Shown piece after piece: positions 5,676-56,261 of a DNA stretch of 64,000 nt; position 1 is the first letter of the stretch, and each line of letters starts with the position of its first letter. The notes under the pieces were generated by a model that searched no databases, had not been told where the DNA came from, and worked only from the letters and a program-made list of their open reading frames with translations. A program made the translations under genes and the position numbers. The stretch is from Candidatus Omnitrophota bacterium (lineage in GTDB: Bacteria; Omnitrophota; Gorgyraeia; Gygaellales; Profunditerraquicolaceae), in NCBI GenBank assembly GCA_049275655.1, contig JBASUY010000030.1, forward strand, positions 78,446 through 142,445, written 5' to 3'.

Positions 5676-6857
5676 TTATGACTTATAGGGCATGCCCCAA
5701 ATTTTAATAAACCCTTCGGCTAATCTTTGGTCAAATTTATCTTCTTTGCCGTAGGTGCTGAGCTCTTTTTTATAAAGCGAGTGCTTAGAGGTTCTTGATA
5801 CTGCTACGCAGTTGCCCTTAAATAATTTTAACTTTATGGAGCCGGTTACGTTCTTTTGAGTTATGCTAACAAATTTATCCAATGCCTCTCTTAAAGGAGA
5901 AAACCATAAACCATTATATACTAATTCCGAATACTTTAAAGACACAATCTCCTTAAAGTGCGCTAACTCCCTATCTAAGACTAGCGATTCAAGCTCTTTA
6001 TGCGCAGTATGCAGAATAACTGCGGCAGGCGCCTCATAGACCTCACGGGACTTTATTCCCACAAGCCGGTTTTCAATCATATCTACCCTGCCAATGCCAT
6101 GTAATCCACCGATTTCATTTAAATAACTGACGAGATCCTTTAACTTATAGTTTTTACCGTCTATCTTCTTAGGGACCCCCTTTTCGAAATATACTTCAAT
6201 ATACTTAGGATAACTTAGCTGAAGCGTAGGCTTTTTTGTAATTATATAAGTATCCTCCGGCGGCTCCTGTTCTAAATCCTCCAATACTCCCGCCTCAATA
6301 CTTATACCCCAGATATTTCTGTCTATACTGTAAGGTTTTTTCTTAGTAACATCTATGGGTATATTGTGTTTTTTAGCGTATTCTATTTCTTCTTCTCTAG
6401 ACTTAAACTCCCAAACCCTTACCGGAGCGATTATATTAAGATTAGGGGCTAATGTAGCCGCACCGACCTCAAGCCGAACCTGATCATTGCCTTTACCGGT
6501 ACAACCATGGGCTACGGCACCTGCCTTTTCTTTACGCGCTATTTCAACTAAGTATTTTGCGATTAAAGGCCTACCTAAGGCAGTAGCCAATAGATACTTT
6601 CCTTCGTAAACAGCGCCGGCTAAAAGAGCAGGAATACAATAATCTTTAAGAAACTCGTCTTGCAAGTCTTTAATATATACCTTTGCGGCTCCGGCAGATA
6701 AAGCCCTATCTTCAATAGCATTTAAGTCCTCGCCCCTGCCTAAACCTTGGCCAAGGTCAGCCATAAAACATACAACCTCATACCCTAAGTCTTTAAGCCA
6801 CCTTACTATGCAAGAAGTATCTAACCCGCCGGAATACGCTAATACAACTTTTTTCAT
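5676..6857 (-). CDS. argG: argininosuccinate synthase
   Basis: AYSGGLDTS PP-loop motif, 393 aa. Confidence 0.92.
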   Translation of the reverse strand: MKKVVLAYSGGLDTSCIVRWLKDLGYEVVCFMADLGQGLGRGEDLNAIEDRALSAGAAKVYIKDLQDEFLKDYCIPALLAGAVYEGKYLLATALGRPLIAKYLVEIARKEKAGAVAHGCTGKGNDQVRLEVGAATLAPNLNIIAPVRVWEFKSREEEIEYAKKHNIPIDVTKKKPYSIDRNIWGISIEAGVLEDLEQEPPEDTYIITKKPTLQLSYPKYIEVYFEKGVPKKIDGKNYKLKDLVSYLNEIGGLHGIGRVDMIENRLVGIKSREVYEAPAAVILHTAHKELESLVLDRELAHFKEIVSLKYSELVYNGLWFSPLREALDKFVSITQKNVTGSIKLKLFKGNCVAVSRTSKHSLYKKELSTYGKEDKFDQRLAEGFIKIWGMPYKS

Positions 6858-6871
6858 CTCTCCCTCATCCT

Positions 6872-7795
6872 TTAATCTATTTTTAATAATTTTATCAGCA
6901 CCGCTTTTTGAACGTGCAACCTATTCTCTGCCTGATCAAAGACAACCGAGTTATTGCTGTCTAAAACTTCATCGGTTATCTCTTCGCCTCTATGTGCAGG
7001 CAAGCAATGCATTACAAGCACGTTATCCTTAGCCAGTTTTAACAAAGTTTTATTTACTTGGAAGCTCTCAAAAGCCTTCTTTCTTGTTAAAGACTCTTCC
7101 TCTTGCCCCATACTCGCCCAGACATCAGTATAGATTACATCTGCGTTCCTTGCTGCATCCTGAGCATTATCAAATAGGTTAATAGTTGAGTTATTTACCT
7201 TCGCCTCTGCTTTGGCATTTTTAAAGACTGTTTCTTGCGGCTGATAACCGCAAGGAGATGCAACATTCATATTAACCCCTAGCTTAGCGCAGGCAAAGAG
7301 GAGTGAATTACAGACATTATTCCCGTCGCCGATATAGGCTAAGGTTATATTTTTGAAGCTCTTTAGCTTCTCTCTTATAGTGAAAAGGTCTGCTAGGGCT
7401 TGACAGGGATGAGAAAAATCAGACAAACCGTTTATAACCGAGATAGAAGCAGAGGAAGCCATCTTTAAACAGGTATCATGCTCAAAAGTTCTCAAGACTA
7501 TTCCGTTAAGATACCTAGATAAGGTCTTGGCAACATCAGCTATTGATTCTCTTACTCCTAAATTTATCTCTTCAGGAGAAAGATAAAGCGCATTGCCTCC
7601 TAATTGGTACATACCTACCTCAAAAGAGACCCTGGTCCTATTAGACGGCTTTTGAAATATTAACCCTAAAGTTTTTCCTTTTAAAGTTTTAGCAAACCTA
7701 TTGCTATTCTTCTTAAGCTTATCAGTAAGTAAAAATACCCCGGTTATCTCTTGAGTAGTTAAATCCTTAATAGAAACTAAATCTTTTTTCATCAT
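6872..7795 (-). CDS. argF: ornithine carbamoyltransferase
   Basis: STRTR carbamoyl-phosphate motif and HCLP motif, 307 aa, arg operon context. Confidence 0.85.
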   Translation of the reverse strand: MMKKDLVSIKDLTTQEITGVFLLTDKLKKNSNRFAKTLKGKTLGLIFQKPSNRTRVSFEVGMYQLGGNALYLSPEEINLGVRESIADVAKTLSRYLNGIVLRTFEHDTCLKMASSASISVINGLSDFSHPCQALADLFTIREKLKSFKNITLAYIGDGNNVCNSLLFACAKLGVNMNVASPCGYQPQETVFKNAKAEAKVNNSTINLFDNAQDAARNADVIYTDVWASMGQEEESLTRKKAFESFQVNKTLLKLAKDNVLVMHCLPAHRGEEITDEVLDSNNSVVFDQAENRLHVQKAVLIKLLKID

Positions 7796-44400: not shown

Positions 44401-46934
44401 ACACTCTCCATCTCAAGCCAATTATCTCCCTGCTTCATATCAACCACTACAGGGACATCCAACTCTAATGCATTCTCCATCTTATCCTTCACCAAAGGAA
44501 GCAAAAAAGACAATTCCTCTTTAGGTAAATCAAATAATAGCTCATCGTGCACCTGTAATACCAACCTAGCCTTAAAAGATTTCTTTGTTAGAGCCTCTTG
44601 AATATTGACCATAGCCAATTTAATTAAATCCGAGGCAGAGCCCTGTATAGGGGTATTAACTGCCTGACGCCGGGCAAACTGGCGCAGTGCAATATTTTTG
44701 CTGTGGATCTGCGGGATATACCTTCTTCTTCCTAAAATAGTAGTAACAAACCCTTTTTCTTCAGCTATATTTATCCCTTCCTCTATATAATCTTTAACTT
44801 TAGGGTATCTTGAAAAATACGCATCTATAAAAGCCTGCGCTTCATCTATGGAGATATTCAAATCACGGCTTAAGCCAAAAGATGTAAGCCCATAAAGAAT
44901 ACCGAAATTTACCCTTTTAGCGGTATCGCGCATCTCTTCCGTTGTATCTTTTTCTTCTACCCCATAGATTAACCCGGCGGTAATCTTATGGATATCCTTA
45001 TTGCGCCTAAAAGCCTCAATAAGATTGCCATCTTTAGAAAGATGAGCAAGCACTCTTAGCTCTATCTGCGAATAATCACAGGAGAGAAGCAGGCTATCTT
45101 TATCTGAAGCAATTATACTTCGCCTGATATTGCCCCCTATCTGAGTCCTTATCGGGATATTCTGTAAGTTTGGGTTACTGGAACTTAACCTGCCTGTCTC
45201 TGTGACGCATTGGTTAAAAGAGGCATGCAGCCTTCCTGTTGTACTATCAACCAACAAAGGCAAGGGATCAATATAAGTAGTCTTTAGTTTGGCCAACTGC
45301 CGGTATTCTAATAATATCCCGGGTAACTTATGCTCTTTGGCTAATTTGCTTAAAACCTCTTCATCCGTAGAAGGGCCTGTTTTTGTGCGTTTTATAACCG
45401 GGAGATTAAGCTTTTCAAATAGGATATTGCTTAACTGCTTAGGGGAGTTAATATTAAACTTAGCATCGCTTAGTTTATAGATATCGCGCATTAAATATTT
45501 AAGCTTTTTCTCCAACTCTTTGGATAAAGAAGCCAATAATTTTAAATCTAATCTTACGCCGTCAATCTCCATTCCCGCTAAAACATCAACCAGCGGCATC
45601 TCTACTTCCTTAAACAACTTAAAAAGCCCTTTATCTTTTAACTCTTTTTCTAACGCCAGCACAAGCATCTTTACCAAATGAGCTTCTTTATGCTGGCTTA
45701 ATGTTTCTACTGCAGCATTGGTACCTAAAAACTCAAACACTATACTATCTAAACTATAATCCGGCTTTGAAGGATTTAAAAGATAAGCAGCAACCATAAG
45801 GTCAAAAGAGGTTCCGTTAACTACTACACCCCTTCTGCCCAATACAACCTTTACCTTCTTTAGATTATGCCCTATCTTTTTAACCTTCGGATCAGATAAT
45901 ATTTTTTTAAGGTTAGGCCCTACTTCAGAAAGGAGCATTTTTTTGCCCTGAATATAAATAAAAAGGTTAGTGCCATCGTCTGCGGATATAAATAATTCTC
46001 TAATGCCCTCTAAAACTTTACCCGACTCTCTATCTTTGTATTCTTCCGCTTGGCAAGAATTAACAGCACTCTGTTTAGGCTTGATTGTTAAGAGGAATTT
46101 TTTAAACTCTAACCTTTTAAACAAGGCGGATAACTTCCCTAAATCCGGATCTTCTATTTTAAGCGCCTCTAAATCTAAACCAGCCTTTAAATCCCCTGAT
46201 AGAAATATAAGCTCTTTATTTAACCTAACTCTATCAATATTTTCTTTAATTGCTCTTTGGGTCTTTTCGCTTTCTATCTCTGAAAGGCGGTTTAAGATAT
46301 TCTCCAAAGAACCAAACTTAAGGATTAACTTTACTGCGGTTTTTTCCCCTACCCCCGGAACCCCGGGAATATTATCCGCATCATCTCCTGCTAAGCTTAA
46401 TAGGTCCGGGATCTGCTCAGGCAAAACCCCGAAGTACCGGGTAACCTCTTTTTTGTCATAAAGCAGGCCTAAGCCCTTATAAGGATTAAAGACTGAAATA
46501 TCGTCGCTTACTAACTGCAACATATCTTTATCCGAGCTTACTATGGTAACAGAAAAACCATTGGAAGCTGCCCGCTTGGCTATACTTGCAATAATGTCAT
46601 CTGCCTCAAACCCTTCTTCTTCTACAATCTTAAAACCAAAACCTAAAACAATTTCTTTAATTAAAGGAATCTGGCTGGCTAATTCATCCGGCATCTTTGG
46701 CCGTTGTATCTTATAATCCGCAAATTTACGCGACCTGAAAGTATCACCGGAGACATCAAAACATACGGCTAAATAATCGGGGCGCCCTTCCTTAAGTATC
46801 TTATTTATAATATTTATAAACCCATAAATCGCCCCGGTCGGTTGCCCATAGGAAGTACTTAAATTCCTAACTGCATAAAAAGCCCTATAACAAAAAGATG
46901 TAGCATCCAATAAATATAGTCTTTTAACAGGCAT
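44397..46934 (-). CDS. polA: DNA polymerase I (Taq-like; 3'-5' exonuclease residues apparently not conserved)
   Basis: 5'-nuclease domain, a vestigial exo region (AYLLNPS) and the family A polymerase motifs (DYSQIELR, QVHDEL), 845 aa. Confidence 0.92.
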   Translation of the reverse strand: MPVKRLYLLDATSFCYRAFYAVRNLSTSYGQPTGAIYGFINIINKILKEGRPDYLAVCFDVSGDTFRSRKFADYKIQRPKMPDELASQIPLIKEIVLGFGFKIVEEEGFEADDIIASIAKRAASNGFSVTIVSSDKDMLQLVSDDISVFNPYKGLGLLYDKKEVTRYFGVLPEQIPDLLSLAGDDADNIPGVPGVGEKTAVKLILKFGSLENILNRLSEIESEKTQRAIKENIDRVRLNKELIFLSGDLKAGLDLEALKIEDPDLGKLSALFKRLEFKKFLLTIKPKQSAVNSCQAEEYKDRESGKVLEGIRELFISADDGTNLFIYIQGKKMLLSEVGPNLKKILSDPKVKKIGHNLKKVKVVLGRRGVVVNGTSFDLMVAAYLLNPSKPDYSLDSIVFEFLGTNAAVETLSQHKEAHLVKMLVLALEKELKDKGLFKLFKEVEMPLVDVLAGMEIDGVRLDLKLLASLSKELEKKLKYLMRDIYKLSDAKFNINSPKQLSNILFEKLNLPVIKRTKTGPSTDEEVLSKLAKEHKLPGILLEYRQLAKLKTTYIDPLPLLVDSTTGRLHASFNQCVTETGRLSSSNPNLQNIPIRTQIGGNIRRSIIASDKDSLLLSCDYSQIELRVLAHLSKDGNLIEAFRRNKDIHKITAGLIYGVEEKDTTEEMRDTAKRVNFGILYGLTSFGLSRDLNISIDEAQAFIDAYFSRYPKVKDYIEEGINIAEEKGFVTTILGRRRYIPQIHSKNIALRQFARRQAVNTPIQGSASDLIKLAMVNIQEALTKKSFKARLVLQVHDELLFDLPKEELSFLLPLVKDKMENALELDVPVVVDMKQGDNWLEMESV

Positions 46935-46984
46935 TAATAAAAAATATGGAAATCAATTTGGTAGGAAATTTTCTTAAGTGGCCT

Positions 46985-47725
46985 CTATTCTGATAATGCC
47001 CTGTGCTGAACCTTTTCAATAAACTCCATTATATCTTTATTTTCAGGATCCAAATACTGGGCATCCAAAGCTTCCTTTACGGCTTTGGCATAATTGCTTT
47101 TTGCATAACTAGACTTAGCATTGTCAAAGTGCTTACGGGCAAGCGCTCTGTCATCATGCCTTAATATGTACTTTTCATTAGAAATGTCTTTTGCCAATTT
47201 CAAGATATCCTGCTCCTCAAAATCCTTTACCGGATTTTGAGAAAAACTTAAACGTATATCCTCAAAGCGCTTTTGGGCCTTCTTAGTCCAAGGGTCATTA
47301 AAATCCCCTAATTCCGAACGCTTCTTCCAACAATAAGCAGCCTTGCCAAATTCCCTTCTCTCCTCGTATAAAAGGGCTAAGTTAGTATAGGAACTTAAAT
47401 AGTACGGGTCTAATTTTAGGGCCTTAAGGTAGCTCTCTTCGGCCCTATCTATCATGCCTTTAGCCTCATAAACTACGCCTAAATCATTATAAGCTACTGC
47501 ATAAAAGGGATCTACCTCTATTGCCTTCTGATATATCTTCATTGCTACATCTAAATCGCCCGCATCTTGCGCCTTTAACCCTTCTTGGCGGTATTCACGC
47601 GCCTGAGCCTCCAAGGCAGTAAGCTCCTTTGGTTTTTCTAAGCCTGCTACTTCTTGCGCAAATACAGAATAGCTCCGGAAGAATAAAGATAAGCCTAAAA
47701 CTAAAATTAAGATTATATTTTTCAA
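46985..47725 (-). CDS. secreted TPR-repeat protein, TTG start
   Basis: Signal peptide MKNIILILVLGLSLFFRSYSVFAQE. Tandem TPR-like repeats (AYNDLGVVYEAKG, YTNLALLYEER). Confidence 0.6.
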   Translation of the reverse strand: MKNIILILVLGLSLFFRSYSVFAQEVAGLEKPKELTALEAQAREYRQEGLKAQDAGDLDVAMKIYQKAIEVDPFYAVAYNDLGVVYEAKGMIDRAEESYLKALKLDPYYLSSYTNLALLYEERREFGKAAYCWKKRSELGDFNDPWTKKAQKRFEDIRLSFSQNPVKDFEEQDILKLAKDISNEKYILRHDDRALARKHFDNAKSSYAKSNYAKAVKEALDAQYLDPENKDIMEFIEKVQHRALSE

Positions 47726-47764
47726 GTGTCTCTTGAAAATTAAGGTTGGTATATGTTTTCTTCT

Positions 47765-47792
47765 ATTATATAAAATAAAACTCGCTCGTCAA
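47765..47792 (-). promoter_or_regulatory. sigma70-like promoter (TTGACG-16-TATAAT) upstream of the TPR-polA-glgA transcription unit
   Basis: -35 at 47787-47792 and -10 at 47765-47770 in the minus-strand sense. Confidence 0.45.
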
Positions 47793-47816
47793 GAGAAAAA
47801 TTAGAATAATATAAAT

Positions 47817-49970
47817 TTATAATAAAGGATTCATAAAAAGCGCTGGGTGCTTAGCCTTCCTGAGAAAATCTAATAGGGGATTAAGAGTAAGAGCGGTATC
47901 TTCGTCAGCAATCTTTTCTAATAGGTCAGGCTCACCGATATCATAGGCTATTTTTTTTAAGTCCTTTTCAAGCAATAGCTTTAGCTCCTTAGATACCCAT
48001 ACCAAGCGCCTTAAGCCTCCTTCTGCTAAGATAAATTTATCGCTCAATATATATCTTCTGGCTATGCCCATAAACCCTGGGTTAGAAGGAATATTTTTAG
48101 CTAAATCAGAGAGGGTAGAAAAATCCATTCCCAGAGGAGTCATTCCGGGATAATTCCTATCTACCGCAATCACCCCGTTTGCCTCCGGAAGAACAGCAAG
48201 GATGCATTCAAATAAACCTGAAGTTGACAAGGGAGCCTTCGTAATAGAATAAAGACTTGCTTCTTTGATAATACTATTGGTTTTATCCGCAACAAACCTA
48301 TTGATCCCTTCCCACTGCCCTAAAGAACTACTTAAAGCCTTTCCCTTAGGTATAGGGCTATTCCAACCATAAGAAACAACCTCAGAAGATACTTTAGCAT
48401 CTAACCAAGAGTAGGCTCCGCACATCCCCGGGCGCTCTGGAGATATGATACAAATATGATTAGGAGAGGCAGACTGGCAAATAAAACAAGAATAATAATT
48501 ATCCACCTCTTCATCTAAAAGCCCTTTTAAGCGCTCGTCCCTTTCGGAGAAAATCCTTCTTGCCATTTTAAGCTTATCCCGCACATCTCCATCCCGGGTA
48601 TAAAGCTTAACTTGGGCCTTATCTATGATACCTGGATACTCCCGGCGTAGCATAGAATATATAATTAAGCCTAAGTGCTTTAGCCTAAACCCGCTCAGGA
48701 AAGCTTGGCGGCTTATCCTAATTAAATTTAGGTCCCTCTGCCCCTCATGCGCCAAGCCAGAGGCGTAGTTAATAAATCTATGGAGCTGGCGCTCTAGGAC
48801 AGGCTCAAAATCTTTTTGCATTTTTTTACCACAAACTTCAACAACCAAAGCTAAAGAAAGAGAATCTTTTTTAGGTAAATCTTGGCTAATATCCGGGCCG
48901 AACAACTCGATAGACCCATCCTCAATATCGTCTTTATCTCTGTAAACCAAAAGCTCAAAAAACAATCCCCCTCTGCCTCCAAACTCAAAGGCAAGCTCTT
49001 CTTCTTTAACCTTCTCTCCTTCATATAAATCAGAATAAGGAACAGGGATATTTATAGGCAAACCGCTTACCTTTATCCCGCAAGATTGCACGCACAAAGC
49101 GGAGATCTTTTTATAATCCGACTGCGTTAGTATGCTGACCGTTGATCCGGGCGCTATGTTATACGGGCCTTCGGGAGTTAAATCGCTTATTATAGGCAAA
49201 TCAAATACTCCCCCCGCTAAAAGAACGCCTAAATCCAATTTTTCTCTCCTTCCCAAGGCGAGAATAAAAGAAGGTATGCGTTTGCGTAAATAACTTTTTA
49301 GATTATTGAATTCTCCGGGGGCTATATTACCGTAAAGCAATGGTATCCTTATCATAAAATTCAAAGCATATATTAAGGAGAGCGGCCCCCCCCTTAAAGG
49401 CAAAATACGCGTACCCATATCTACCCCTACGGTATTATCCTTATATAATAAAGATAGCGTATTAGCACTTAACCCATCAGTAATAAAGCACAAAATATTT
49501 TTAGAATAAAAATCCCTTAGGATATCTATAAATAAAGATGTATTATTCGGCGCTCCGGAAATAATAGCTACCCCGGATAAGCGGCCATCTATAAGCTTAA
49601 GGCCTAAATCGTGCAATTTGTTATCCGATATGAAGCCAGGATCTTCCAGGAAAGGGGTTTTGTTTAATGCCTTTAAAGAGGCTAACGCCTCTTGGCATAA
49701 AAAGAACAAAACTGCCTCACTTAGAGAATCTTGTAGAGAGGGAGAAAGGCTATGCCTGCTAATCTCATCTAAAGCCTTGCTTAAATCACCTAAGTTCTCA
49801 ACTTTGATTTCTAAAAAAAAGTAAATTAAAGGAAGGTAATAACTTGTGCCGGGGAAGCTTACCCTTTTATCCAAACCAAACTTATTTATTGCCCTGCTTA
49901 AAGTTTGGCGTGCTAAAACTAAAACCCTATCTAAGCCTATATCACAAGCTTGCGCCAACCCTGCCAGCAT
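47817..49970 (-). CDS. acetyl-CoA synthase/decarbonylase beta-subunit (AcsB/CdhC) homolog with an apparently degenerate Ni-binding site
   Basis: Collinear similarity to acetogen AcsB over the full 717 aa: N-terminal GTSYYLPLI; central KMQKDFEPVLERQLHRFINYASGLAHEGQRDLNLIRIS; A-cluster [4Fe-4S] ligands SCFICQSASPNHICIISPERPGMCGA (C-x2-C-x8-C-x9-C); C-terminal GMTPLGMDFSTL, GFMGI and HPALFMNPLL. Exactly 67 aa after the last cluster Cys, where the Ni-ligand Cys-Gly-Cys is expected, the sequence reads S-G-L (STSGLFEC). Confidence 0.7.
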   Translation of the reverse strand: MLAGLAQACDIGLDRVLVLARQTLSRAINKFGLDKRVSFPGTSYYLPLIYFFLEIKVENLGDLSKALDEISRHSLSPSLQDSLSEAVLFFLCQEALASLKALNKTPFLEDPGFISDNKLHDLGLKLIDGRLSGVAIISGAPNNTSLFIDILRDFYSKNILCFITDGLSANTLSLLYKDNTVGVDMGTRILPLRGGPLSLIYALNFMIRIPLLYGNIAPGEFNNLKSYLRKRIPSFILALGRREKLDLGVLLAGGVFDLPIISDLTPEGPYNIAPGSTVSILTQSDYKKISALCVQSCGIKVSGLPINIPVPYSDLYEGEKVKEEELAFEFGGRGGLFFELLVYRDKDDIEDGSIELFGPDISQDLPKKDSLSLALVVEVCGKKMQKDFEPVLERQLHRFINYASGLAHEGQRDLNLIRISRQAFLSGFRLKHLGLIIYSMLRREYPGIIDKAQVKLYTRDGDVRDKLKMARRIFSERDERLKGLLDEEVDNYYSCFICQSASPNHICIISPERPGMCGAYSWLDAKVSSEVVSYGWNSPIPKGKALSSSLGQWEGINRFVADKTNSIIKEASLYSITKAPLSTSGLFECILAVLPEANGVIAVDRNYPGMTPLGMDFSTLSDLAKNIPSNPGFMGIARRYILSDKFILAEGGLRRLVWVSKELKLLLEKDLKKIAYDIGEPDLLEKIADEDTALTLNPLLDFLRKAKHPALFMNPLL

Positions 49971-50835
49971 CTTTATTCTCTAACCTGTTAATTATATTAT
50001 CTATTAACATCATGCTTACCGAAAGGCTCTTTTTGCCTATAACACTGCCGCAGGCAAAAATATTGCTGTAATTAGTAGCCATATTTTTATCAACTACTAT
50101 AAAATCATCCTTAATCAACACCTCTGTATTCTTTAAAAAATCAATATTTGATTTATAATTATCCATAAATAAAACTGCACATACCCCTAAGGCCTTGCCA
50201 CTCTTAAGCTTTATTGCCTGCACCTCTCCTTCGCCAATAACCTCAATTAAAGAATCACAGATAACCTCTATCTTTTTAGGTAAGTCTGAATAAGCAAGCA
50301 TAAAAGGGCTTAAAATCTTAACCTCTACCCCGTACCTATCTATTATCGCCTCTGCAACTTTTAAGGCTAGGCTATTTAAACCAACTATGCATACCGGATG
50401 TGCTATAAAACGCTTAAGAAACTCTTTAGTATCATCTAAGGTATATAAACGATAAGCACCTACTTTTCTAGCCCCGGGTATATCCGGAACAACCGGGCTT
50501 CTGCCGGAAGCGATAACTAAAATGTCATAATTAATGCTTCCCTTATCCTTAAAATATACTAAAAACTTTTCCGTATTTATACCGGATACTTTTTTATTCT
50601 TTAAAAAATTAATTCCTGCTTTCTGATAAAAATCCTCGTCGCATAAAAATATATCTTTTTCTTTTACTACTCCGCTTATAAAATCTGGTATCTTTAAATG
50701 GTCGTAGGAAAGGTAACCTTCTTGGCTAAGCAAGGTTATATTACAATCCCTATGCTTAGCCTTTAACCCTAAGGCGATATTATGCCCTGATACTGAAGCT
50801 CCTATAATAACTACATTACCCATCATAATCCGCAA
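49942..50835 (-). CDS. truncated FAD-dependent pyridine nucleotide-disulfide oxidoreductase-family protein
   Basis: N-terminal FAD Rossmann motif VVIIGASVSGHNIA. The second dinucleotide-site region is degenerate (IVGLNSLALKV). Only 297 aa with no dimerisation domain. Overlaps metF and the acsB-like gene. Confidence 0.6.
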   Translation of the reverse strand: MRIMMGNVVIIGASVSGHNIALGLKAKHRDCNITLLSQEGYLSYDHLKIPDFISGVVKEKDIFLCDEDFYQKAGINFLKNKKVSGINTEKFLVYFKDKGSINYDILVIASGRSPVVPDIPGARKVGAYRLYTLDDTKEFLKRFIAHPVCIVGLNSLALKVAEAIIDRYGVEVKILSPFMLAYSDLPKKIEVICDSLIEVIGEGEVQAIKLKSGKALGVCAVLFMDNYKSNIDFLKNTEVLIKDDFIVVDKNMATNYSNIFACGSVIGKKSLSVSMMLIDNIINRLENKDAGRVGASL

Positions 50836-51692
50836 GCGTCTAAGATTTCAGGCAATAGCCTCCCTAAGCCAATAGGCATAATATGCACTCCGTCACACAT
50901 CGGCCTTAGCTTCTTTATAAGGCTTGAGGCTATCTCTATAGCCTTAGCTGTTTTATCCTTAGCCTCTTCCATCTCTTTTATTAAAACTTCAGGGACCACA
51001 ACTCCGGCTACATTTTCGTTCATATATCTGGCCATGGTTGCTGACTTTAAAATGACTATTCCTGCTAAAATCTTAGTATTAAGATGCCTTACCTTCTTTA
51101 AGAAATCTTCAAAGACCTTTAGGTCATAAACTGCCTGAGTCTGAAAGAACTCTGCCCCTGCGGATATCTTTTTTTCCATCTTTATAATCTCCGGCTCTAA
51201 AGGGTCTGCTCCCGGATTAACCACAGCGCCTAAATAAAAATCCGGATGTTTGCCGGTTAATCTATTGCCTTTTAAATCAGACCCGTTTTTAAGCATGCTT
51301 GCTGCCTGAAGTAGTTGTACTGAATCTAAATCAAACACAGGTTTAGCCTCCGGATGGTCTCCTGCTGTAGTATGGTCTCCGGTTAATATCAAAATATTTT
51401 CTATGCCTAAAGCTGCGGCGGACAAAAGGTCTGACTGCAATGCTAAACGATTACGGTCGCGACAGGTTAATTGATATATCGGCTCAAGCCCTTTTTCTCT
51501 TAAGATGCTCGAAACTACTAATGAACCTAACCGCAAGACAGAACTCTGCAGGTCAGTTACATTAAAGGCATCAACCCTGTTACGGATAATCTCAGCCTCC
51601 TCAATTACCTGCTTAGTATCTATACCTTTGGGCGGGCCAATCTCAGAAGTCACCATAAACTTTCCTGAACGTAATTTTTCCCTGAAACTCAT
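50823..51692 (-). CDS. metF: 5,10-methylenetetrahydrofolate reductase
   Basis: MTHFR TIM-barrel family (SFEIGPPKG-like N-terminus; ILTGD), 289 aa. Located between folD and the oxidoreductase. Confidence 0.85.
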   Translation of the reverse strand: MSFREKLRSGKFMVTSEIGPPKGIDTKQVIEEAEIIRNRVDAFNVTDLQSSVLRLGSLVVSSILREKGLEPIYQLTCRDRNRLALQSDLLSAAALGIENILILTGDHTTAGDHPEAKPVFDLDSVQLLQAASMLKNGSDLKGNRLTGKHPDFYLGAVVNPGADPLEPEIIKMEKKISAGAEFFQTQAVYDLKVFEDFLKKVRHLNTKILAGIVILKSATMARYMNENVAGVVVPEVLIKEMEEAKDKTAKAIEIASSLIKKLRPMCDGVHIMPIGLGRLLPEILDACGL

Positions 51693-52561
51693 TTATATCC
51701 CCCGCTTTCTTCTCTATAGCGCTCCTGAATAATAACTACCTCAACTAAATTACGCATAAGCATAGTAACGGTTAAAGGGCCAACACCTCCAGGAACCGGC
51801 GTAATAAAAGCGGCCCTTTTTTCTGCGCTATCAAATTCCACGTCTCCTACGATTTTATCTTTTATCCAGTTAATCCCCACATCTATTACTACAGAACCCT
51901 CTTTAACCCAATCCCCTTTAATTAAATTAGGGATACCTGCGGAAGAGACTAATACCTCTGCCCTGCTAATATGCTCTTTAAGCCTTCCAGATTCGCTTGT
52001 AGCTATATGGCATACTGTAACAGTAGCCATCTTTTGTAACAATAAAAGTGCTAAAGGCCTGCCTATTATCCGGCTATGCCCAACAATAACTATCTCTTTA
52101 CCGTATAAGTCTATATTGCTTTCTGCAATTAATTCCATAACCGCAGCAGGCGTACATGGGAGAATCCCCTCTTCCCCGAGCATGATTTTGCCTAAATTAC
52201 CAGGATGCATACCCTCAACATCCTTAGCCAAATCAATAGAAGCTACTGCCTTTTTATAATTAACATGCTCAGGTAACGGGCTTTGCAAGATAATTCCGTT
52301 TATAGAATTATCTAAATTTAATTCGCCTATAAAATCCAAGAGGCCGTTCTGAGTAGTAGAAAGAGGCAAATTATAAGGTTGGTAACCAATCCCTAACTCC
52401 CGGGCAAGTTTGGCCTGCGCATTAACGTAGCTTTGCGAGCTTAAGCTTTCTCCGATAATAATGCTTGCTAAAAGAGGCTTTACTTTTAAGGAGGATATAC
52501 GCCTTCTTAAAGTGTCTTTTATCTTATCGGCAATAACCCTACCTTCTAATAACCTTGCCAA
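51689..52561 (-). CDS. folD: bifunctional methylene-THF dehydrogenase / methenyl-THF cyclohydrolase
   Basis: FolD motifs (LASIIIGE, VVIVGHSRIIGRPLA, PVPGGVGPLT), 290 aa. Confidence 0.9.
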   Translation of the reverse strand: MARLLEGRVIADKIKDTLRRRISSLKVKPLLASIIIGESLSSQSYVNAQAKLARELGIGYQPYNLPLSTTQNGLLDFIGELNLDNSINGIILQSPLPEHVNYKKAVASIDLAKDVEGMHPGNLGKIMLGEEGILPCTPAAVMELIAESNIDLYGKEIVIVGHSRIIGRPLALLLLQKMATVTVCHIATSESGRLKEHISRAEVLVSSAGIPNLIKGDWVKEGSVVIDVGINWIKDKIVGDVEFDSAEKRAAFITPVPGGVGPLTVTMLMRNLVEVVIIQERYREESGGYK

Positions 52562-53099
52562 AGCTCTCCTCCATTTTAATTCTTATCTTCTTAAGAGCCG
52601 TAGACTTCTTATTAACCTCAGCAGTAATAGCGCGGGAAAATGCCTTGTCATCTAAGCCCTTTAAATTAATCTTAATATTAAAACAAGAAGAAGCAAATCC
52701 TGCTTCAAAAAGAACTGCCGCAATAACAACATCGCTTATCAATTTAGGGTTGCCTTTTCTTATAAGCAAGGGGCATATCTTTATTCCCTCAAAACAGAGC
52801 CTAGCAACCATAAAAGGCACATTTACCGCATCCCTTATATTTTTAGATTTATAGGCAATCGCATCTAAATCAACTAAACGTATAAATTCTTTTCTAAGCC
52901 GCTCACTTTGGCTTAAAGCCTCTTTTAACTTATCCTCATGCTTTAAAAACTTAGGGTTGCCTAAGGTAAAGTTTATCGCCATACTCATCAAGGCTGCAGC
53001 CATAGCAGCGCATAACGCGGCGGCAGAACCTCCTCCCGGGACAGGGAGCCTAGAAGAAAGTTCTTTAATATAATCCTCAAGGGTTTTATCTTTATACAT
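52539..53099 (-). CDS. fchA: methenyl-THF cyclohydrolase / formiminotransferase-cyclodeaminase C-domain family (FchA-like). Start taken at the internal Met (MYKDKTLEDY); the longest ORF extends to 53138
   Basis: FTCD_C signature LPVPGGGSAAALCAAMAAAL. The longer ORF would overlap yraN by 35 nt, so the Met at 53097-53099 is preferred. Confidence 0.7.
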   Translation of the reverse strand: MYKDKTLEDYIKELSSRLPVPGGGSAAALCAAMAAALMSMAINFTLGNPKFLKHEDKLKEALSQSERLRKEFIRLVDLDAIAYKSKNIRDAVNVPFMVARLCFEGIKICPLLIRKGNPKLISDVVIAAVLFEAGFASSCFNIKINLKGLDDKAFSRAITAEVNKKSTALKKIRIKMEESFGKVIRR

Positions 53100-53103
53100 A
53101 TTT

Positions 53104-53484
53104 TTAGTAACTAAAACCGCCACTGACTTCAAAGGCATCTTTAATTAAACTTAACTTAAAAGGAGAAGAAGAAAAATCTACAGAAACTACATCAAACCTT
53201 GCCCTTTTATTTAACAGAGAATTTTCTTTAAGAAAATTTAAAGCTACCTTAGATATCCTCCTCTGTTTTAAAGAAGAGACGGCTTCTTTTGCTAAGCCAA
53301 ACCTACTGCTCCTACGGGATTTTACTTCTATAAAACATAAGGTATCTTTATCTAAAGCTACTATATCTATCTCCCCAAACTTAACTTTATACCTTCGCGC
53401 TATTATTTTATACCCCTTGCCCTTAATAAATCTTACTGCTAAGTCCTCGCCGCTTTTGCCAAGGCTTAATTCTTTTTTAGCCAT
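53104..53484 (-). CDS. yraN: YraN/UPF0102 family endonuclease
   Basis: GE(x)DIVA...EVK motif typical of UPF0102, 126 aa. Conserved pairing with rnhB. Confidence 0.8.
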   Translation of the reverse strand: MAKKELSLGKSGEDLAVRFIKGKGYKIIARRYKVKFGEIDIVALDKDTLCFIEVKSRRSSRFGLAKEAVSSLKQRRISKVALNFLKENSLLNKRARFDVVSVDFSSSPFKLSLIKDAFEVSGGFSY

Positions 53485-54079
53485 CTAAAAAGCTTCTCCT
53501 GTGTATAGGCAAAGGGCCTAACCTCTTTAAGCTTTCTTTATGCTCTTTTGTAGGATAACCCTTATGCGCCTTAAATCCGTATTCAGGATAGATACGGTCG
53601 TAAGCAAGCATTATCCTATCCCTTGTAACCTTAGCAATAATAGAAGCGGCGGCTATACTCTTAGACTTAGCATCCCCCCGGATAATAGATAGATACGGCA
53701 ATGGCAGGCTTAAAGGCATATTCCCATCAACAATAATATAAGCCTTGCCCAGCTTTACCTTGCTTAACTTTCTTATCAAAGAACGCACTGCCTTTTGAAT
53801 AGCAAGGTGTGTGGCTTGAAGAATATTAATCCTATCTATTACCTTTTCGCCTACAATCCCTATGCCGATTAAAGAGTGCTTTTTAATCTCCGTAAAAGCC
53901 TTATCCCTTGCTAAGGGTGTTAATGCTTTTGAATCATTAATAATGTTTCTAAAGGTATGCTTCTTTAACAATACCGCGGCAGCTACTACCGGACCGGCTA
54001 AAGGCCCCCTGCCTGCCTCATCCACCCCAATAATAAACTTGTATCCTAAACGCTTAAATCTGCGCTCGTAATAGAGCAT
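53477..54079 (-). CDS. rnhB: ribonuclease HII
   Basis: GVDEAGRGPLAGPVVAAAV active-site motif, 200 aa. Confidence 0.9.
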   Translation of the reverse strand: MLYYERRFKRLGYKFIIGVDEAGRGPLAGPVVAAAVLLKKHTFRNIINDSKALTPLARDKAFTEIKKHSLIGIGIVGEKVIDRINILQATHLAIQKAVRSLIRKLSKVKLGKAYIIVDGNMPLSLPLPYLSIIRGDAKSKSIAAASIIAKVTRDRIMLAYDRIYPEYGFKAHKGYPTKEHKESLKRLGPLPIHRRSFLDG

Positions 54080-54091
54080 AGCAGGTAAGGC

Positions 54092-54439
54092 TTATTCTTT
54101 GCTTGCTATCTTAGTGGCGCGCTTGCCGAATTTTCCCCTTAAATAGTAGAGCTTTGCCCGCCTTACCTTGCCTAAACGGATAACCTCAATACGCTCAATA
54201 CTAGGAGAGTTAAGCGGAAAGACCCTCTCAATCCCCTCGCCATAAGAGACCTTTCTAATCGTAAAATGCTCACTAACCCCCTTACCCTCCCTTGCGATAA
54301 CTACACCTTCAAATGGATGGAGGCGGAATTTATCCGGGCCTTCAGGTATCTTAGTAAAAACCTTTATGGTATCTCCCACATTAAATGCAGGATGCTCTTT
54401 TTTAACAAATAACAATTTTTCTAAATTAGCCCTATTCAT
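54092..54439 (-). CDS. rplS: 50S ribosomal protein L19
   Basis: L19 signature ([27 protein letters not shown]), 115 aa. Follows trmD. Confidence 0.92.
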
Positions 54440-55131
54440 TTTTCCTCCTTAATTTGTTTTTCAAAAAGATCGGGCCTGCGCTCCGCCGTCACCCTAATAG
54501 ATTCTTTCTTTCTCCAAACACTGATTTTTTTATGGTCTCCGGAAAGAAGGACCTTGGGGACACCCATATTTTTATAGTTAGCCGGCCTAGTATAATGCGG
54601 ATATTCTAATAGATTACCTTCAAAAGACTCAAAATTCAAGGAATTTTTGTCTCCCAATACCCCCGGCAACAACCTTACTACCGCGTCTATAAAGGCCATT
54701 GCCGGTAACTCTCCTCCGGTTAAGATATAATCCCCTATAGAGACCTCTTCATCAACTAAATATCTTCTTACCCTTTCATCTACCCCCTCATAATGCCCGC
54801 AAATAAGTATAAGATTCTTAAACTTAGCAAACTTTTTAGCTAAAGCCTGATTAAATACCTTCCCCTGCGCAGAAAAGAGTACAACCTTGGCTCTTTTTAT
54901 TTTAGATTTTATCTTCTCAACGCAATTAAATATCGGTTCAGGCCGCATAACCATGCCTGAGCCCCCTCCAAAGGGGCGGTCGTCAACCTTTCTATGCTTA
55001 TCTTGCGTATAGTTTCTTAAATCATGAATATAAAACCTTACCCTTTTTTTGGCTTGTGCGCGCTTCATCATAGACTCATTTAAGACGCAATCAAACATCC
55101 CGGGGAATATAGTTATTATATCTATCCTCAT
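54436..55131 (-). CDS. trmD: tRNA (guanine37-N1)-methyltransferase
   Basis: SPOUT knot motifs ([18 protein letters not shown]), 231 aa. Confidence 0.9.
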
Positions 55132-55133
55132 AC

Positions 55134-56261
<1,128 letters not shown>

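Follow-up and report, generated by a model that had tools for sequence, protein, structure and literature searches.

A truncated flavoprotein encoded between metF and acsB in Omnitrophota, a candidate accessory subunit of acetyl-CoA synthase

A small flavoprotein-like protein, from now on referred to as X, is encoded between metF and an acsB-like gene in a 64,000 nucleotide (nt) stretch of DNA from a Candidatus Omnitrophota bacterium (GenBank assembly GCA_049275655.1, contig JBASUY010000030.1, positions 78,446 to 142,445). This entire stretch is referred to as the window and all coordinates are window positions. We tentatively interpret X as the reduced descendant of a flavoprotein lineage that would serve AcsB, the acetyl-CoA synthase (ACS), as an accessory subunit independent of NAD(P)H, and not as a free-standing oxidase. 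X is tied to AcsB because of natural gene fusions, the strongest evidence available, and a physical association of X with AcsB or the AcsB-like protein is probable on this basis. A transfer of electrons by X to or from AcsB or MetF is more doubtful. X appears to be a protein of known fold in a so far undescribed association with acetyl-CoA synthase, and its lineage seems to be unnamed.

Fusions with AcsB and the reduction series of X

The gene for X and the three segments of its product are as follows:

49942..50826, minus strand: coding sequence of X (type A, truncated flavoprotein), 294 amino acids (aa) plus stop codon
50491..50826, minus strand: N-terminal half of the FAD-binding domain, residues 1-112
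50164..50490, minus strand: middle domain, formerly NAD(P)H-binding, residues 113-221
49945..50163, minus strand: C-terminal half of the FAD domain, then a terminal helix, end of X

A profile search covering 1.84 billion representatives yielded P0109, a protein of 1024 aa in which X and a complete AcsB are joined; on its contig, metF is followed by the single fused gene. Searching with P0109 returned eight more clusters of complete fusions, nine in all (1014-1030 aa, 58-82% identity to P0109), originating from ENA, JGI and NCBI. Further, in loci L019 and L021 the open reading frame (ORF) of X continues into AcsB and runs off the contig ends. The P0109 search also identified 109 clusters of Omnitrophota AcsB, about 840-870 aa long, with an N-terminal extension. 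By BLASTP, the N-terminal ~120 aa of these ~850 aa proteins align to X residues 113-221 only; the extension is exactly the middle, formerly NAD-binding domain, and both halves of the FAD domain are gone. Residues 113-222 of the window X also match it directly (tblastn). No separate FAD domain can be encoded in L025-L027, because metF stops 19 nt before the ~850 aa acsB genes in these loci. Mean pairwise identity is 71% in the extension compared with 79-84% in the three AcsB domains, and the patterns PG..K.G, VC..G and E..GEG...A.K...GK are common to free, fused and extension forms in at least 90% of sequences. Overall, the slot fchA-folD-(metF)-X-(acsB) holds four forms of X:

Form 1: full-length X of ~420 aa, NAD(P)H motif intact in some
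Form 2: truncated X of ~290 aa, as in the window
Form 3: complete X-AcsB fusion, 9 clusters
Form 4: AcsB of ~850 aa with the X middle domain alone as N-terminal extension, 109 clusters

The first form is exemplified by P0154 (420 aa), which occupies the same slot between metF and an acsB with an intact Cys-Gly-Cys (CGC) nickel site and carries PF00070, a GGGTIA motif and a Rubredoxin_C domain. P0154, P0142, P0143 and P0149 are positional orthologues with an intact NAD(P)H motif. No fusion of MetF with X was found among the X-family matches of the protein and profile searches.

We hypothesize that X would sit as a tightly bound accessory subunit on AcsB or the AcsB-like protein, and that it would dock via its middle domain, because this is the part kept on AcsB. 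The FAD carried by X would take no electrons from NAD(P)H; since the NAD(P)H site is gone, it could only be an NAD(P)H-independent relay. Its possible roles would be to relay single electrons or to poise the Fe-S centre (and Ni, where present) of AcsB, with MetF possibly as a neighbouring partner. The original prediction had X as a subunit of a complex of MetF and the AcsB-like protein. The natural fusions back the AcsB part of this claim. The MetF part is unsupported: neither a fusion nor another direct link of X to MetF was found, and MetF is also present in lineages where the whole FAD domain is deleted. It is the formerly NAD-binding middle domain that stays on AcsB, and not the flavin module. 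The proposal of an FAD-only electron-transfer module in place of a stand-alone NAD(P)H oxidase stands as far as the missing NAD(P)H site is concerned, while the electron transfer is inference only.

Gene, cofactor motifs and conservation of X

The maximal ORF (49942..50835, minus strand) counts 297 codons from TTG 50835. Judged from the sequence, this TTG is an unlikely start, and the in-frame ATG at 50826, from which residues are numbered here, is probably the correct one; a second candidate ATG lies at 50823. ATG 50826 overlaps the metF stop codon TGA (50825-50823) as ATGA in the sequence GGA TTA TGA TGG. A product of 293-294 aa is indicated because of this overlap, the MMNH or MNN N-termini of relatives in the family alignment and the length of 293 aa of database protein P0001, which is identical to the window X. 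No Shine-Dalgarno sequence of its own was seen at the start of X. As the original prediction stated, X overlaps both neighbours, metF by 4 nt and the AcsB-like gene (start ATG 49970) by 29 nt; the predicted length of 297 aa has to be shortened accordingly, and the absence of a dimerisation domain is upheld by both Pfam and the fold.

A family search covering 5.8 billion proteins found ~84 protein clusters of 265-313 aa close to X, below which scores fall sharply to ordinary oxidoreductases of 400-460 aa. All named members are Omnitrophota but for one 'Margulisiibacteriota'. Relative to the nearest genome (L001), the ratio of non-synonymous to synonymous divergence (dN/dS) is 0.20 for X, 0.24 for the AcsB-like gene, 0.10 for MetF, 0.25 for FolD and 0.24 for FchA. 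The window X is under purifying selection, and because of this ratio and the ~84 close clusters of the same length, X is confirmed as a real gene and not a chance ORF.

The hidden Markov model check that had been proposed for Pyr_redox_2 and Pyr_redox_3 returned Pyr_redox_2 (PF07992) with an E-value of 5.6e-28 and 98.6 bits (gathering cut-off 26.1), spanning X residues 7-274 and profile positions 2-280 of 291, and Pyr_redox_3 as a weak second match. No PF00070, dimerisation or Rubredoxin_C domain was matched in X with Pfam. The NCBIfam matches, PadH, CoA-disulfide reductase (CoADR), the NirB N-terminus and NorW, all fall far under their cut-offs. X stops where relatives run on into a Rubredoxin_C-type domain of ~110 aa, and positional orthologues of 413-422 aa have a C-terminal PF18267. 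The motifs of X map to the window as follows:

50785..50802, minus strand: FAD dinucleotide-binding motif G-A-S-V-S-G, residues 9-14, G9 family-invariant
50719-50721, minus strand: ribose-binding Glu36 at the end of β2 of the FAD motif
50365..50382, minus strand: degenerate NAD(P)H motif G-L-N-S-L-A, residues 149-154, replacing GxGxxG
50227..50235, minus strand: family-invariant G-E-G, residues 198-200, inside E..GEG...A.K...GK (types A, B and C)
50044-50055, minus strand: ACGS in place of the 'GD' motif, A258 and G260 invariant

The good N-terminal FAD motif that had been predicted is IIGASVSGHNIA, which contains GASVSG, of the form G-x-S-x-x-G, with G9 and E36 invariant. ASG in the region of residues 106-110 stands for the 'ATG' motif and includes the invariant G108; GS for GD is also found in the full-length orthologue P0154. 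In an alignment of 29 sequences, the invariant FAD positions are G9, E36, G108, A258 and G260, and those of the middle domain are G118, G123, V145, E187, G198-E199-G200, A204 and G210. The window X also carries the lineage marker motifs IPGxxKxGV, VCxxG and E..GEG...A.K...GK. Mean top-residue frequency in the truncated family is 0.66 in the FAD domain and 0.66 in the middle domain.

The peptide IVGLNSLALKV was likewise placed correctly: it falls exactly on the GGGAIG NAD(P)H motif of Bacillus anthracis CoADR (3cgb) and on the equivalent motifs of 3klj and 6ruz. When X was compared with solved structures by phmmer, CIVGLNSLALKVAEAI fell on TIIGGGAIGLEMAETF of 3cgb. A full NAD(P)H motif was not found in the window X on alignment. 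The residue ending β2 after this motif is Ser in X and Glu in 3cgb, so that neither an acidic nor a basic residue is present at this position, and ~14 residues (14 alignment columns) are deleted after β2. Nearly all members of the truncated family share a second dinucleotide motif of the form G-x-[N/D/S]-x-x-A, and two have lost ~20 further residues near it. Among 251 aligned relatives, GxGxx[GA] is matched by just 16 of the 159 proteins with a short C-terminus, and the segment after β2 has a median of 17 residues in these proteins compared with 31 in the long relatives. The position of the catalytic Cys of CoADR and NADH peroxidase is Leu44 in X (SYDHL) and Leu, Arg or Lys across the family; conserved Cys residues are single (C146, C259) and form no Fe-S cluster motif.

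Using the 29 family sequences, an AlphaFold2 (AF2) model of X was built with a mean local confidence (pLDDT) of 92.5 and a predicted TM-score (pTM) of 0.88. Its top Foldseek matches in the PDB are TodA, CoADR, putidaredoxin reductase (PdR) and AorC of aldehyde oxidoreductase (E 1e-24 to 1e-20), with TM-scores of 0.82-0.85 normalised to the query and 0.45-0.64 normalised to the target. Because of the high query and low target scores, X corresponds to the FAD and NAD domains alone of enzymes of ~400-550 aa. Taken together, these features suggest a functional gene whose product very probably does not bind NAD(P)H in the canonical way and probably retains FAD; FAD binding is considered likely because the FAD-motif positions are invariant and constraint on the FAD domain equals that on the middle domain.

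Two candidate identities were rejected on these grounds: CoADR, NADH oxidase or NADH peroxidase, since the catalytic Cys is missing, and HdrA, NfnB or MetV, since Fe-S motifs are lacking (PF12225 and PF14691 unmatched) and the fold relatives differ. The comparison with HdrA/NfnB-type flavin subunits that had been proposed hence gives no kinship, and the fold is ferredoxin/rubredoxin-reductase-like. Isoprene reductase IsrA was also rejected as a relative, being NfnB-like with Fe-S clusters and found in an unrelated context.

The AcsB-like partner and alternative explanations

The AcsB-like protein of the window can be aligned from end to end with solved ACS structures (E 1e-155). Its relevant features are:

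47817..49970, minus strand: AcsB-like protein, 717 aa, all three ACS domains, start 29 nt inside X
48204..48227, minus strand: nickel-ligand position of the A-cluster, Cys-Gly-Cys changed to Ser-Gly-Leu (STSGLFEC)
48420..48497, minus strand: retained four-Cys [4Fe-4S] motif YYSCFICQSASPNHICIISPERPGMC

Where solved ACS structures read TS-C-G-C-FE, the window protein reads ST-S-G-L-FEC; the window lineage should be unable to make acetyl-CoA with it, because both nickel-binding Cys are gone. The nickel site is also lost in L002 (CGF), L004 and L006 (SGY), L005 (GGY) and L008 (CGY), while CGC is intact in L007, L010, L011, L013, L014, L018, L020, L022, L023 and L031. The [4Fe-4S] Cys motif is retained in every full-length AcsB copy checked. 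In L010 (4341-6537), AcsB is split in two pieces. Between the window and L001 (8857-11010), the AcsB-like gene shows a synonymous divergence (dS) of 1.01 and 64% amino acid identity, and ten genes neighbouring it show a dS of 0.20-0.44 and 80-97% identity. This gene-specific excess of divergence suggests recombination or gene replacement. In L010-L014, L016-L018 and L022, X ends in a conserved tail, 'MKGExC(Q/R)T(S/Y)', which contains one Cys. The tail is absent wherever CGC is lost, including the window clade, yet also absent in the CGC-intact L007 and L020; a link between this 'GExCQTS' tail and an intact CGC was considered and no conclusion was drawn, the sample being phylogenetically nested.

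Several observations weigh against X as an accessory subunit of AcsB. The window AcsB-like protein has no nickel ligands and hence, as read from its sequence, presumably no A-cluster to activate. Short AcsB proteins of 425-432 aa without the N-terminal domain occur in L003 (8866-10143), L008 (8857-10134) and L015 (8851-10149), and X is still kept there. The flavin would be dispensable for at least part of the role, because the commonest AcsB form has no flavin domain. An AF2 model of the fusion P0109, based on a 143-row alignment, reaches a pTM of only 0.43, with a disordered linker at residues 291-297, a poorly modelled A-cluster domain and no usable geometry between the domains. In addition, where Omnitrophota such as Ca. 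Zapsychrus and WOR_2 have neither metF nor acsB at the locus, X is still present at full length (413-417 aa) right after folD, often overlapping it, in an otherwise identical block. In L024 (8001-9692, P0153), folD is followed by X fused to a TPR protein, again with no metF or acsB. An original role of the X family tied to genes of one-carbon (C1) tetrahydrofolate (THF) metabolism and independent of AcsB is therefore indicated by these sequences, and the AcsB link may be a later recruitment.

Full-length X takes the place of metF after folD in L036 (6001-7254), L038 and L039 (both 6001-7242) and L034 (6014-7264), with a degenerate second dinucleotide motif in most of these copies, and X is joined to the TPR protein of P0153 through a hydrophobic segment. 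Many full-length X proteins after folD also have a degenerate second motif, e.g. QSDAWAG or RADNFSG; NAD(P)H binding was apparently lost repeatedly with the protein kept, because such motifs are found in full-length X too. An ORF of ~208 aa, with no Pfam match on record, follows full-length X in L028 (8365-8991), L030 (3026-3658) and L035 (8130-8753) and precedes a short metH (~800 aa) in L028 and L035. With its sequence 'RFSAGYGDF...PEKSVTAVAGI', it presumably represents the AdoMet-binding reactivation domain of MetH as a separate protein. Where no metF is present at the locus, full-length X after folD could be a non-orthologous methylene-THF reductase (MTHFR) or a corrinoid-reactivation reductase, the latter because X adjoins the gene resembling the MetH reactivation domain in L028 and L035.

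One alternative, which we regard as unlikely, is that X is the electron-input subunit of MetF and thus defines a fifth kind of MTHFR, in which an FAD protein replaces MetV, RnfC2 or HdrA and electrons from a donor such as ferredoxin or rubredoxin would pass via X to the MetF flavin. The ATGA overlap of the X start with the metF stop and the missing Shine-Dalgarno sequence are consistent with this, as is the coupling of X to folD in lineages without metF. The MetV family PF12225 was not found in the operon or in 30 other window ORFs scanned, and the window MetF is nearest to the MTHFR half of PRK08645 and only distantly related to MetF structures of the NADH type. Acetogen MetF proteins have no NADH site and need partner subunits (PMC8760232). 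Against this, the family matches contain more than 100 AcsB fusions and zero MetF-X fusions, metF is still found 19 nt ahead of acsB in lineages that have deleted the FAD domain, X lacks any Fe-S Cys motif, and full-length X is kept where no metF lies within 6-8 kb.

X could also be a pseudoenzyme, that is, a structural domain or adaptor for AcsB with a non-redox flavin, e.g. covering the surface occupied in other bacteria by carbon monoxide dehydrogenase (CODH); this, too, has a low probability. It would fit a reduction series that ends with the middle domain alone on AcsB, repeated losses of the NAD(P)H motif that extend to full-length X elsewhere in Omnitrophota, and the many Omnitrophota reported without AcsA and CooS (PMC10066038). 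However, the FAD-binding residues are the invariant ones in the ~290 aa form, constraint is equally strong in the FAD and middle domains, and a dN/dS of 0.20 was obtained for X.

A further possibility, rather improbable, is that a flavoprotein-derived module was built into Omnitrophota ACS as a novel subunit or N-terminal domain and that, in the window clade, MetF, X (FAD) and the AcsB-like protein (Fe-S), which is without its nickel site but retains the [4Fe-4S] cluster, together form a novel NAD(P)H-independent MTHFR. The former ACS protein would then take the Fe-S role of MetV and X would relay electrons from flavin to flavin. It is about as improbable that X and the nickel-less AcsB-like protein are decaying, functionless relics of a lost carbonyl branch of the Wood-Ljungdahl pathway. 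Such decay could account for the lost nickel ligands in the window, L002, L004-6 and L008, the lost AcsB N-domain in L003, L008 and L015, and the lack of acsA/C/D/E, cooS and fhs among 40 window ORFs scanned with Pfam. It is countered by intact ORFs for both proteins, dN/dS values of 0.20 (X) and 0.24 (AcsB-like), the [4Fe-4S] Cys motif kept in each full-length copy checked and the occurrence of truncated X beside CGC-intact AcsB in other lineages. Finally, a free-standing NAD(P)H oxidoreductase with non-canonical nucleotide binding and an incidental operon position is highly improbable. In its favour, X folds like NAD(P)H-dependent reductases overall, the first Gly and final Ala of the motif are left, and intact motifs occur in a few positional orthologues (P0154, P0142, P0143, P0149). 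Against it, Asn, Asp or Ser stands in place of the second Gly, the deletion after β2 is extended by ~20 residues in two members, no C-terminal domain provides the usual dimer or partner site, and the context is invariant and includes fusions.

Operon context and comparison with known systems

The C1 block upstream of X consists of three genes:

50823..51692, minus strand: metF (PF02219), stop codon overlapping the X start as ATGA
51689..52561, minus strand: folD, upstream member of the conserved block
52539..53138, minus strand: fchA (methenyl-THF cyclohydrolase), first gene of the C1 block

When one genome per species was scanned with a 15-sequence X alignment, 22 loci were found, all of Omnitrophota type, with some ENA records titled 'uncultured Planctomycetales'. 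All 22 share the order trmD-rplS-rnhB-yraN-fchA-folD-metF-X-acsB-TPR-polA-glgA, at X identities down to 38%; homologs that are always stand-alone enzymes in unrelated contexts would have spoken against the original prediction, and no such context was found, metF-X-acsB being present at 22 of 22 genome loci. In the further loci L023-L039, X directly follows folD or metF in the trmD-rplS-rnhB-yraN-fchA-folD block. The scan of 40 window ORFs mentioned above also detected no metV (PF12225). The remaining window genes are housekeeping genes (dap, arg, leu, fab, trp-type, recG, infB).

In L022 (3100-4728) and L031 (2707-4401), fhs (formate-THF ligase) lies between yraN and fchA; this block of the window contains none. 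The TPR protein of the window (46985-47725) opens with a signal-peptide-like or transmembrane segment. The best sigma-70-like match (11/12) is located at 47765-47792 on the minus strand, between the AcsB-like stop and the TPR gene, and would put the end of the C1/acsB operon at the AcsB-like gene; the promoter and terminator scan of 46800-55300 gave fewer sites than shuffled sequence. All window ORFs of at least 150 aa with a family match sit on the minus strand, and each of the 32 two-kb bins of the window (1-64000) has a negative GC skew. The window probably belongs to one replichore arm in which genes strongly favour one strand.

ACS and methylene-THF reductase represent the Wood-Ljungdahl steps with the least settled electron supply. 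In the uncultured, widespread phylum Omnitrophota, the interval between metF and acsB codes for a conserved protein that is so far undescribed, and a piece of it forms an N-terminal domain in over 100 ACS protein clusters of the phylum. If X were a true ACS subunit, the partial Wood-Ljungdahl pathways of Omnitrophota would have to be read differently, and enzymologists would have a natural ACS fusion to express. If it were a structural remnant, it would offer a clean case of stepwise loss, of the cofactor site, then of a domain and then of its identity as a separate gene. X-type proteins are now annotated by pipelines as 'NAD(P)H-nitrite reductase' or 'FAD-dependent oxidoreductase'. Partial Wood-Ljungdahl pathways, in many cases lacking AcsA/CooS, are reported by the main comparative study of the phylum (PMC10066038); the portions of its text and supplements that contain pathway terms make no mention of the X gene or the ACS extension. 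Full-text searches of the literature returned nothing on an AcsB-attached flavoprotein, or one beside metF, in Omnitrophota.

TodA (4emi, 3ef6), PdR (1q1r) and the NirB-family protein 3klj share two Rossmann-type domains and FAD motifs with X (Foldseek E 1e-24 to 1e-21, query TM-score 0.82-0.85), and no redox-active Cys is present on either side. X differs from them in lacking the NAD(P)H motif and the Reductase_C or Rubredoxin_C domain, in the deletion after β2 and in being ~110 aa shorter. The best PDB sequence matches of X are CoADR, NADH peroxidase and NADH oxidase (3cgb, 6ruz, 1nhp; E 3e-16), and a G-x-S/D-x-x-G style FAD motif is common to X and relatives of the NADH peroxidase/CoADR type. 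In contrast to this group, X has Leu at the catalytic Cys and neither a dimerisation domain nor an NAD(P)H motif. Sulfide:quinone reductase and flavocytochrome c, members of the same superfamily, set a precedent in that their second 'dinucleotide' domain has ceased to bind NAD(P)H. Their matches are weak and confined to residues ~2-140 of X, and they have catalytic Cys pairs and a C-terminal domain.

Pyr_redox_2 subunits of larger complexes are known from AorC of tungsten aldehyde oxidoreductase (8c0z_E), a structural match, and PadH of phenylglyoxylate dehydrogenase (NF045765), the top NCBIfam match of X with an E-value of 2.9e-26, far under the cut-off. Both are ~420 aa long and PadH is annotated as NADH-dependent, whereas X has neither the NAD(P)H site nor the last domain.

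For ACS itself, the Carboxydothermus hydrogenoformans enzyme (1ru3) is monomeric, and AcsB works without bound CODH in this system. Dehalococcoides-type pathways are incomplete Wood-Ljungdahl pathways and can be compared with monomeric ACS. To our knowledge, none of the monomeric-ACS or Dehalococcoides-type systems has been described with a flavoprotein-derived subunit or N-terminal extension. Unlike monomeric ACS, the window AcsB-like protein has no nickel ligands.

The physiological electron donor of MetF is debated for many acetogens, and of the four types of acetogen MTHFR none has an X-like protein (PMC8760232). MetV, RnfC2 and HdrABC-MvhD (types II-IV) are encoded beside metF in Wood-Ljungdahl clusters and feed electrons to a MetF without an NADH site (PMC8760232). 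These partners carry Fe-S clusters and are non-homologous to X, which has no Cys cluster motif.

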